This document shows positions 7,784 to 8,396 of a stretch of DNA of 9,895 nucleotides, piece by piece. The position numbers and the translations under genes were made by a program. Within the stretch, counting starts at the first letter, position 1, and each line of letters begins with the position of its first letter. Under the pieces are notes generated by a model. The model was not told the origin of the DNA and made no database searches. It saw only the letters and a program-made list of their open reading frames with translations. The DNA comes from a virus (Duplodnaviria > Heunggongvirae > Uroviricota > Caudoviricetes): the IMG/VR virus record IMGVR_UViG_2529292886_000013; one strand, 5' to 3'.

Positions 7784-8396
7784 AGAAGAGCGAGATTACA
7801 AAGTTACCCGTCAAACGGTGCAATGAAGCCAAGTTAGAACTCGTCAGAATGAATATTATCAAGCAGCAAGGCGGCATGTTTGGACCAAATAAAAACATCT
7901 CAGAATGGTGTATCCCTCAAAACAGGGGGACACAAAAGACACTATTACAAAAGAAAAAAGAAAAGATTATTCGTCAGAGAATTCTGGCGAATCCTCTGAC
8001 CAGCCAGAAAACGACCTTTCTGTGGTGAAACCGGATGCTGCAATTCAGAGCGGCAGCAAGTGGGGGACAGCAGAAGACCTGACCGCCGCAGAGTGGATGT
8101 TTGACATGGTGAAGACTATCGCACCATCAGCCAGAAAACCGAATTTTGCTGGGTGGGCTAACGATATCCGCCTGATGCGTGAACGTGACGGACGTAACCA
8201 TCGCGACATGTGTGTACTGTTCCGCTGGGCATGCCAGGACAACTTCTGGTCCGGTAACGTGCTTAGCCCGGCCAAACTCCGCGACAAGTGGACCCAGCTC
8301 GAAATCAACCGTAACAAGCAACAGGCAGGCATGATAGCCAGCAAACCAAAACTCGACCTGACAAACACAGACTGGATTTACGGGGTGGATCTATGA
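7784..8396 (+). pseudogene. O: Replication initiator O, 5'-truncated and internally frameshifted
   Basis: Homology to lambda O begins mid-gene (SEITKLPVKRCNEAKLELVRMNIIKQQGGMFGPNKNISEWCIPQN) with no start codon or upstream O sequence. That frame stops at 8026-8028. The C-terminal domain (YPSKQGDTKDTITKEKRKDYSSENSGESSDQPEND...TNTDWIYGVDL) is in a different frame, open from 7905. Confidence 0.8.
7912..7975. promoter_or_regulatory. ori: Remnant of the lambda-type replication origin: a single iteron plus the adjacent AT-rich tract
   Basis: Only one O-binding iteron (ATCCCTCAAAACAGGGGGA, 7912-7930), followed by the A-rich segment ACAAAAGACACTATTACAAAAGAAAAAAGAAAAGATTATTCG. Lambda carries four tandem iterons here (established knowledge). 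Confidence 0.6.

Follow-up and report, generated by a model that had tools for sequence, protein, structure and literature searches.

The ORF map of the window (the whole stretch of 9,895 nucleotides that was analysed) starts with ybhC and continues with the left arm and early region of a lambda-type prophage, in the order int, xis, exo, bet, gam, kil/cIII region, ea10/DUF2528, O fragments, P, ren and ninB. The ninB gene is intact, and the other genes to which this report refers are located as follows:

1-1284, minus strand: ybhC
1419-2489: int
4898-5578: exo
5575-6360: bet
6366-6662: gam
7084-7452: ea10/DUF2528
8393-9094, plus strand: P, intact, 233 aa, with 227/233 residues identical to lambda P and annotated as "replication protein P" in E. 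coli PV15-279
9091-9381, plus strand: ren, intact, 96 aa, taken from the ORF list; PV15-279, with 100% identity over this part, has it annotated as "protein Ren"

Comparison of the window with the ybhC prophages of E. coli O55:H7 and early-branching O157:H7 strains has revealed 99.4-99.8% identity, with matches that fall in three pieces and span about 13.7 kb in total, against 9.9 kb in the window. Identity was 99.8% with LSU61 and DEC5B and 100% with PV15-279 over the common parts, and no complete RefSeq E. coli genome matched the window as one piece. The insertion adjoins ybhC, as in the Sp3/CP-933K lineage of O55:H7/O157:H7, and int, xis, exo, bet and gam are near-identical to those of that lineage. 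Judged by these sequence matches, the prophage of the window, located at ybhC, is cryptic, lambda-like and a member of the Sp3/CP-933K lineage of E. coli O157:H7. Its closest relative, the prophage of O157:H7 strain LSU61, has a full early region composed of a 149-aa hypothetical gene, ral, an N-like gene, hicA/hicB, a LexA-family repressor gene, cro, cII and a 900-bp O gene. Outside this region, two neighbouring ORFs of 58 and 128 aa on the plus strand of the window (3135-3732) correspond to one hypothetical gene of 200 aa, uninterrupted in LSU61 (positions 3635-4237 of locus L003) and marked as frameshifted by PGAP in PV15-279, which equals the window there; this split gene is a second pseudogene of the prophage.

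The segment between ea10 and P departs from the arrangement found in LSU61. The features located in this segment are the following:

7648-7788, minus strand: last 46 codons (3' remnant) of the 149-aa hypothetical gene, 46/46 identical to LSU61 residues 104-149, forming the left flank of a large deletion
7789: junction of a 3,746-bp deletion, with one shared base (A), placed by blastn against LSU61
7789-8028, plus strand: remnant of O in the N-terminal frame, made up of codons 76-121 (7789-7926), 33 out-of-frame codons and a TGA stop at 8026-8028
7908-8396, plus strand: C-terminal domain of O in a shifted frame, 159/162 residues identical to lambda O 138-299 (98%)
7911-7923, plus strand: 13-bp repeat TATCCCTCAAAAC, common to ITN1 and ITN4 in LSU61 and crossover of a 67-bp deletion, from the four-way alignment
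7912-7929, plus strand: sole surviving iteron, an ITN1/ITN4 hybrid with the sequence of ITN4, from the iteron scan
7931-7971, plus strand: AT-rich part of a lambda-type origin, kept and identical to lambda 39120-39160

In the blastn comparison, window positions 1-7789 correspond to positions 501-8295 of the LSU61 locus (L003), and the window from 7789 on corresponds to L003 from 12041 onward. The 3,746 bp that are absent between both parts contain, according to the LSU61 annotation, ral, the N-like gene, hicAB, cI, cro, cII, the cII-O intergenic region and O codons 1-75, so that the pL/pR region is gone together with the immunity genes. The deletion, which has a microhomology of only 1 bp (A) and probably arose by illegitimate joining, fused the 3' end of the leftward hypothetical gene, located between ea10 and ral in intact relatives, to O codon 76. 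The initial annotation had already described O as 5'-truncated, and this holds, with homology beginning at codon 76, but the start that it gave (7784) is 5 bases early, the true one being 7789; the deletion behind the missing O start, which also took the whole immunity region and pR, goes beyond what it described.

Two further elements of this region were noted. The minus strand carries, at 7626-7643 and directly downstream of the 149-aa gene remnant, a hairpin plus T-run resembling a terminator; it is probably the leftward operon's own, with nothing upstream left to terminate. Between the N-like gene and the repressor gene of LSU61 (L003 9593-10185), a HicA toxin gene is paired with a DUF1902 (HicB-like) gene, and this toxin-antitoxin pair of the immunity region was lost in the 3.7-kb deletion of the window.

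What is left of O is divided between two reading frames (7789-8028 and 7905-8396) instead of forming a single frame that has its own start and about 299 codons. The N-terminal frame (...NISEWCIPQN) is identical to lambda O residues 76-122 at 46/47 positions and diverges after that, and it was confirmed that this frame runs into the iteron and stops at 8026-8028, as previously proposed. Half of the O DNA-binding domain and the O start are missing: the Pfam PF04492 (Phage_rep_O) match in the N-terminal fragment covers only profile positions 57-95 of 95, compared with 2-95 in lambda O, and the complete N-terminal iteron-binding domain (profile 1-95) is thus not present. The N-terminal frame contains an in-frame stop upstream (7708-7710), and its first start codon is found only at 7849; a fusion ORF created by the deletion junction was rejected on both grounds. 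The C-terminal domain (7905/7908-8396), homologous to lambda O 138-299, was correctly assigned to another frame in the initial annotation, and an ATG at 7905 opens a 163-aa ORF that covers it. No Shine-Dalgarno sequence was recognisable upstream of this ATG when the sequence was read, and a consensus scan of 7400-8500 found no sigma-70-like promoter for the O remnant or P. NCBI PGAP already annotates the O gene of PV15-279 as 'frameshifted; incomplete; missing N-terminus'.

The origin region has also been reduced. The origin of lambda, ori-lambda, consists of four iterons plus an AT-rich block and extends from 39034 to 39160 (PMC3349717). A scan of the window with the ITN1 consensus, allowing up to 3 mismatches, found exactly one iteron, with 0.01 expected by chance, and the 19-mer ATCCCTCAAAACAGGGGGA reported before was located at 7912-7930, as had been stated. 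Four 18-bp iterons are therefore not present in the window, and the count of one contrasts with that of LSU61, lambda and UTI89, which have four each; the AT-rich unwinding region immediately to the right of ITN4 has been retained. The segment with cI, cro, the operator/pR and cII is deleted, and with it the rightward pR transcription through or near ori. A four-way alignment of the window with LSU61, lambda and PV15-279 has revealed a clean 67-bp gap that begins where ITN1 starts and ends where ITN4 starts. The annotated iteron starts of lambda (39034, 39054, 39078 and 39101) place ITN1 and ITN4 at a distance of 67 bp and agree with the proposal that the spacing of the four lambda iterons is not a multiple of three; the O frame is shifted by one base because 67 = 3x22+1. 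The repeat common to ITN1 and ITN4, TATCCCTCAAAAC in LSU61, is 12 bp long in lambda (ATCCCTCAAAAC), and no other repeat pair of the array is longer. The idea that a deletion between ITN1 and ITN4 caused the frameshift was thus borne out by the alignment to lambda and LSU61. The 67-bp deletion between these direct repeats most likely occurred by replication slippage or short-homology recombination.

The same lesion was searched in other genomes with a 61-bp probe centred on the collapsed iteron, the E-value cut-off being out of reach for partial wild-type matches. The 67-bp ITN1/ITN4 collapse was found in 9 of 5,426 complete E. coli genomes, in six sequence backgrounds: PV15-279; S88, N53 and N62; ATCC 43889; JNE132847; 15.03CC; and H10407 together with SEC470, whose records have identical length and coordinates. 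The six backgrounds are about 2-4.5% apart and have different repressor types. In every collapsed context examined (S88, H10407, JNE132847, 15.03CC and ATCC 43889), PGAP has O down as an 833-bp frameshifted pseudogene. S88, N53 and N62 are three related ST95 genomes with the collapse, while their relative UTI89 keeps four iterons and a 900-bp O gene. The collapsed iteron is located at position 7124 of locus L004 (S88) and at 6023 of loci L007-L010, and the UTI89 array at 7124-7208 of locus L005. Apart from the 67-bp deletion, S88 and UTI89 differ by only 3 mismatches over 14.2 kb, and because of this the collapse in S88 is considered to have arisen in place.

The flanks of the iteron in the window are also nearly indistinguishable from those of the four-iteron allele of LSU61, with 0/122 differences upstream and 1/1164 downstream, whereas the window differs from all other collapsed alleles by 17/526 to 48/1165. 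Two collapsed alleles thus show 0-1 flank differences from their four-iteron sisters, and the same 67-bp collapse was produced by at least two independent events (the window versus LSU61 and S88 versus UTI89), and probably by up to six, as judged from these sequences. A different origin of the single-iteron allele, its import by homologous recombination from another lambdoid prophage that had already collapsed, would fit the mosaic nature of lambdoid prophages, the presence of several lambda-type O/P modules in O157-lineage genomes (up to 7-8 matching places per genome) and the collapsed allele carried by O157:H7 ATCC 43889 in a different prophage. Such an import is very improbable when the flank counts given above are considered, since they place the window with the LSU61 allele at the same locus and away from the other collapsed alleles, and a conversion tract would need to be confined to the iterons themselves.

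Synthetic junction probes were used to look for other collapses of the array in the complete genomes. A collapse between ITN1 and ITN2 (20 bp, through the common AAAACGAGGGA) was present in two more genomes, E. coli Rb-23 and 1002W03, and ITN1/3 and ITN3/4 collapses were found in none. The ITN1/2-collapsed allele keeps three iterons (Rb-23, positions 1522-1590 of locus L012), with O annotated as frameshifted and 880 bp long. Together, 67-bp or 20-bp iteron slips were found in 11 of the 5,426 complete E. coli genomes. A search of metagenome and GTDB genome collections with the 35-mer of the collapsed iteron gave a single match, in one metagenome contig that is also the IMG/VR match (Ga0247725_1004196, IMGVR_UViG_3300024308_000150). 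Its divergent O-like gene (positions 491-1269 of locus L006) is collapsed at the iteron as in the window and likewise split between two frames; its Phage_rep_O domain is complete, its C-terminal part is unrelated and, estimated by eye, its upstream DNA is about 75% similar.

The explanation that accounts for all these features is that two separate deletions, the 3,746-bp loss upstream and the 67-bp collapse within the iterons, put the replication module of this lambda-like cryptic prophage out of action, a reading to which a probability of about 0.9 is assigned. The module should be both ori-minus and O-minus. Neither an O-some nor origin firing would be expected, because the window has no O protein, a single binding site and no pR transcription. 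That the prophage would be unable to start its own replication, as the initial annotation had suggested, is strongly implied by this analysis and by lambda genetics. In lambda, the deletion of ITN4 alone (24 bp) abolishes origin function and O complementation (PMC6022878). In experiments on the Sp3 prophage of O157:H7 Sakai, which occupies the same site as the window prophage in a more degraded form, neither circularization nor replication nor packaging was seen (PMC2669165). The prophage of the window would then persist only as a silent remnant that cannot leave the chromosome, in which P, ren and ninB are intact but have no obvious promoter.

A residual function has been considered for these genes, in which the 163-aa ORF starting at ATG 7905 (the C-terminal, P-interacting domain of O) and P would be expressed and would hinder superinfecting lambda-type phages or modulate P toxicity. 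In its favour, both the C-terminal frame of O and the P gene are undamaged, at 97-98% identity to lambda; pieces of the lambda replication region, when cloned, are able to silence replication of the lambda type (PMC3349717), and the lethality of P is limited by co-expression with O (PMC6022878). Little probability is given to this function, as no sigma-70-like promoter was found in 7400-8500 and ATG 7905 is not preceded by a Shine-Dalgarno sequence; in addition, the published silencing requires oop transcription and ITN3-4 (PMC3349717), both lacking in the window, and the region is being lost further in PV15-279, a later derivative, and in Sakai Sp3, which argues against selection for its retention. 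The published plasmid 'inhibition phenotype' against lambda-type phages was separately discarded for the remnant, oop and ITN3-4 being absent.

An assembly error at the iterons is unlikely, because the complete and independently assembled genome of O157:H7 PV15-279 carries both lesions at 100% identity; this conclusion is indirect, drawn from the assemblies of other genomes. The identity of PV15-279 with the window extends over 1-5504 and 7644-9895, a span that takes in the deletion junction and the single iteron, and an IS1203 element replaces window positions 5505-7643 (exo' to just past ea10; L001 7692-9000). That a four-iteron array was assembled down to one copy, the true O frame being continuous, is scarcely credible: iterons are tandem near-repeats, a class that assemblers can collapse, but the array is composed of about 85 bp of non-identical repeats and would be shorter than typical reads, the identical allele is found in the complete genome of another strain (PV15-279), the collapse has been passed on within other lineages (S88, N53 and N62; H10407/SEC470) and occurs also in ATCC 43889, JNE132847 and 15.03CC, and O is 5'-truncated anyway by a separate deletion.

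The loss of replication functions by two deletions can be placed within the history of the ybhC prophage. Among the complete E. coli genomes, the junction was found only in PV15-279 besides the window, there with one iteron, and no intermediate form (the junction with four iterons, or an LSU61-type prophage with one iteron) was detected; the 38-mer of the junction had no match in IMG/VR, in GTDB representative genomes or in metagenome contigs. The ybhC prophages can be arranged in a decay series, with the early region intact in LSU61/O55:H7, two deletions in the window, IS1203 in PV15-279, and a deletion from bet' to ninG plus an int pseudogene in Sakai Sp3 (L011 10355-11395). Within this series, the window appears to stand between the intact prophage of O55:H7/LSU61 and more advanced stages, of which PV15-279 is one.

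Comparison with known systems shows how much of the lambda arrangement has been conserved. With respect to lambda O/ori-lambda (NC_001416 38686-39585, with ITN1-4 at 39034-39118 plus the AT-rich block), the kept parts of the window are 98-99% identical in DNA, with the gene order O, P, ren, ninB preserved and with no difference in the ITN4 sequence or the AT-rich block; unlike lambda, the window lacks O codons 1-75, ITN1-3 and the upstream pR, cro, cII and oop, and its O extends over two frames. A small deletion inside ori within O (67 bp, corresponding to lambda 39034-39101) is shared with the classical lambda ori-minus alleles r93, r96, r98 and r99, survivors of replicative killing. These four are in-ori repeat or AT-rich deletions that inactivate the origin, r93 and r98 removing ITN4 (PMC6022878). 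Unlike these lab-selected alleles (12, 15 and 24 bp), which are in frame, the deletion described here was found in natural isolates, is out of frame, does not leave O open, and takes three iterons and kills O simultaneously.

Sp3 of O157:H7 Sakai/CP-933K resembles the window in its lineage, in its insertion beside ybhC and in the loss of repressor and replication functions. In contrast to Sakai Sp3, where the larger deletion removes O, P and ren entirely, the window keeps int, xis, exo, bet, gam, kil/cIII, ea10, P, ren and ninB. The O pseudogenes of S88, H10407, JNE132847, 15.03CC and ATCC 43889 have the identical 67-bp ITN1/ITN4 collapse in prophages with different immunity types and sequence backgrounds that, unlike the window, keep the O 5' end and cII; a cI-like repressor gene and cro are also kept in four of these five backgrounds, and in ATCC 43889 IS1203 is located directly upstream of cII.

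In itself, the feature is ordinary, routine prophage decay, and the recurrence of the exact iteron collapse in independent E. coli prophages is a minor, only modestly new point. A broader interpretation, tentative and rather doubtful, is that the iteron array inside O constitutes a built-in fragile site, at which short-repeat deletions (67 and 20 bp) occur independently time and again and kill origin and initiator in one step; instead of being neutral, they may be selected because they disarm a prophage that could be induced, as an escape from replicative killing, and in the lineage of the window the collapse could have preceded the disappearance of the immunity region, which it would have made tolerable. 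Most lambda iteron spacings are not multiples of three and the repeats lie within O, so that one slip removes origin and initiator together. What the window records is an intermediate stage of the reductive decay already known for the ybhC (Sp3/CP-933K) prophage of the O157:H7 lineage; it also accounts for the expected inability of this prophage to replicate, which matters little alone. The iteron collapse opens no new question, and it is useful for the annotation of prophage competence and as a lineage marker.
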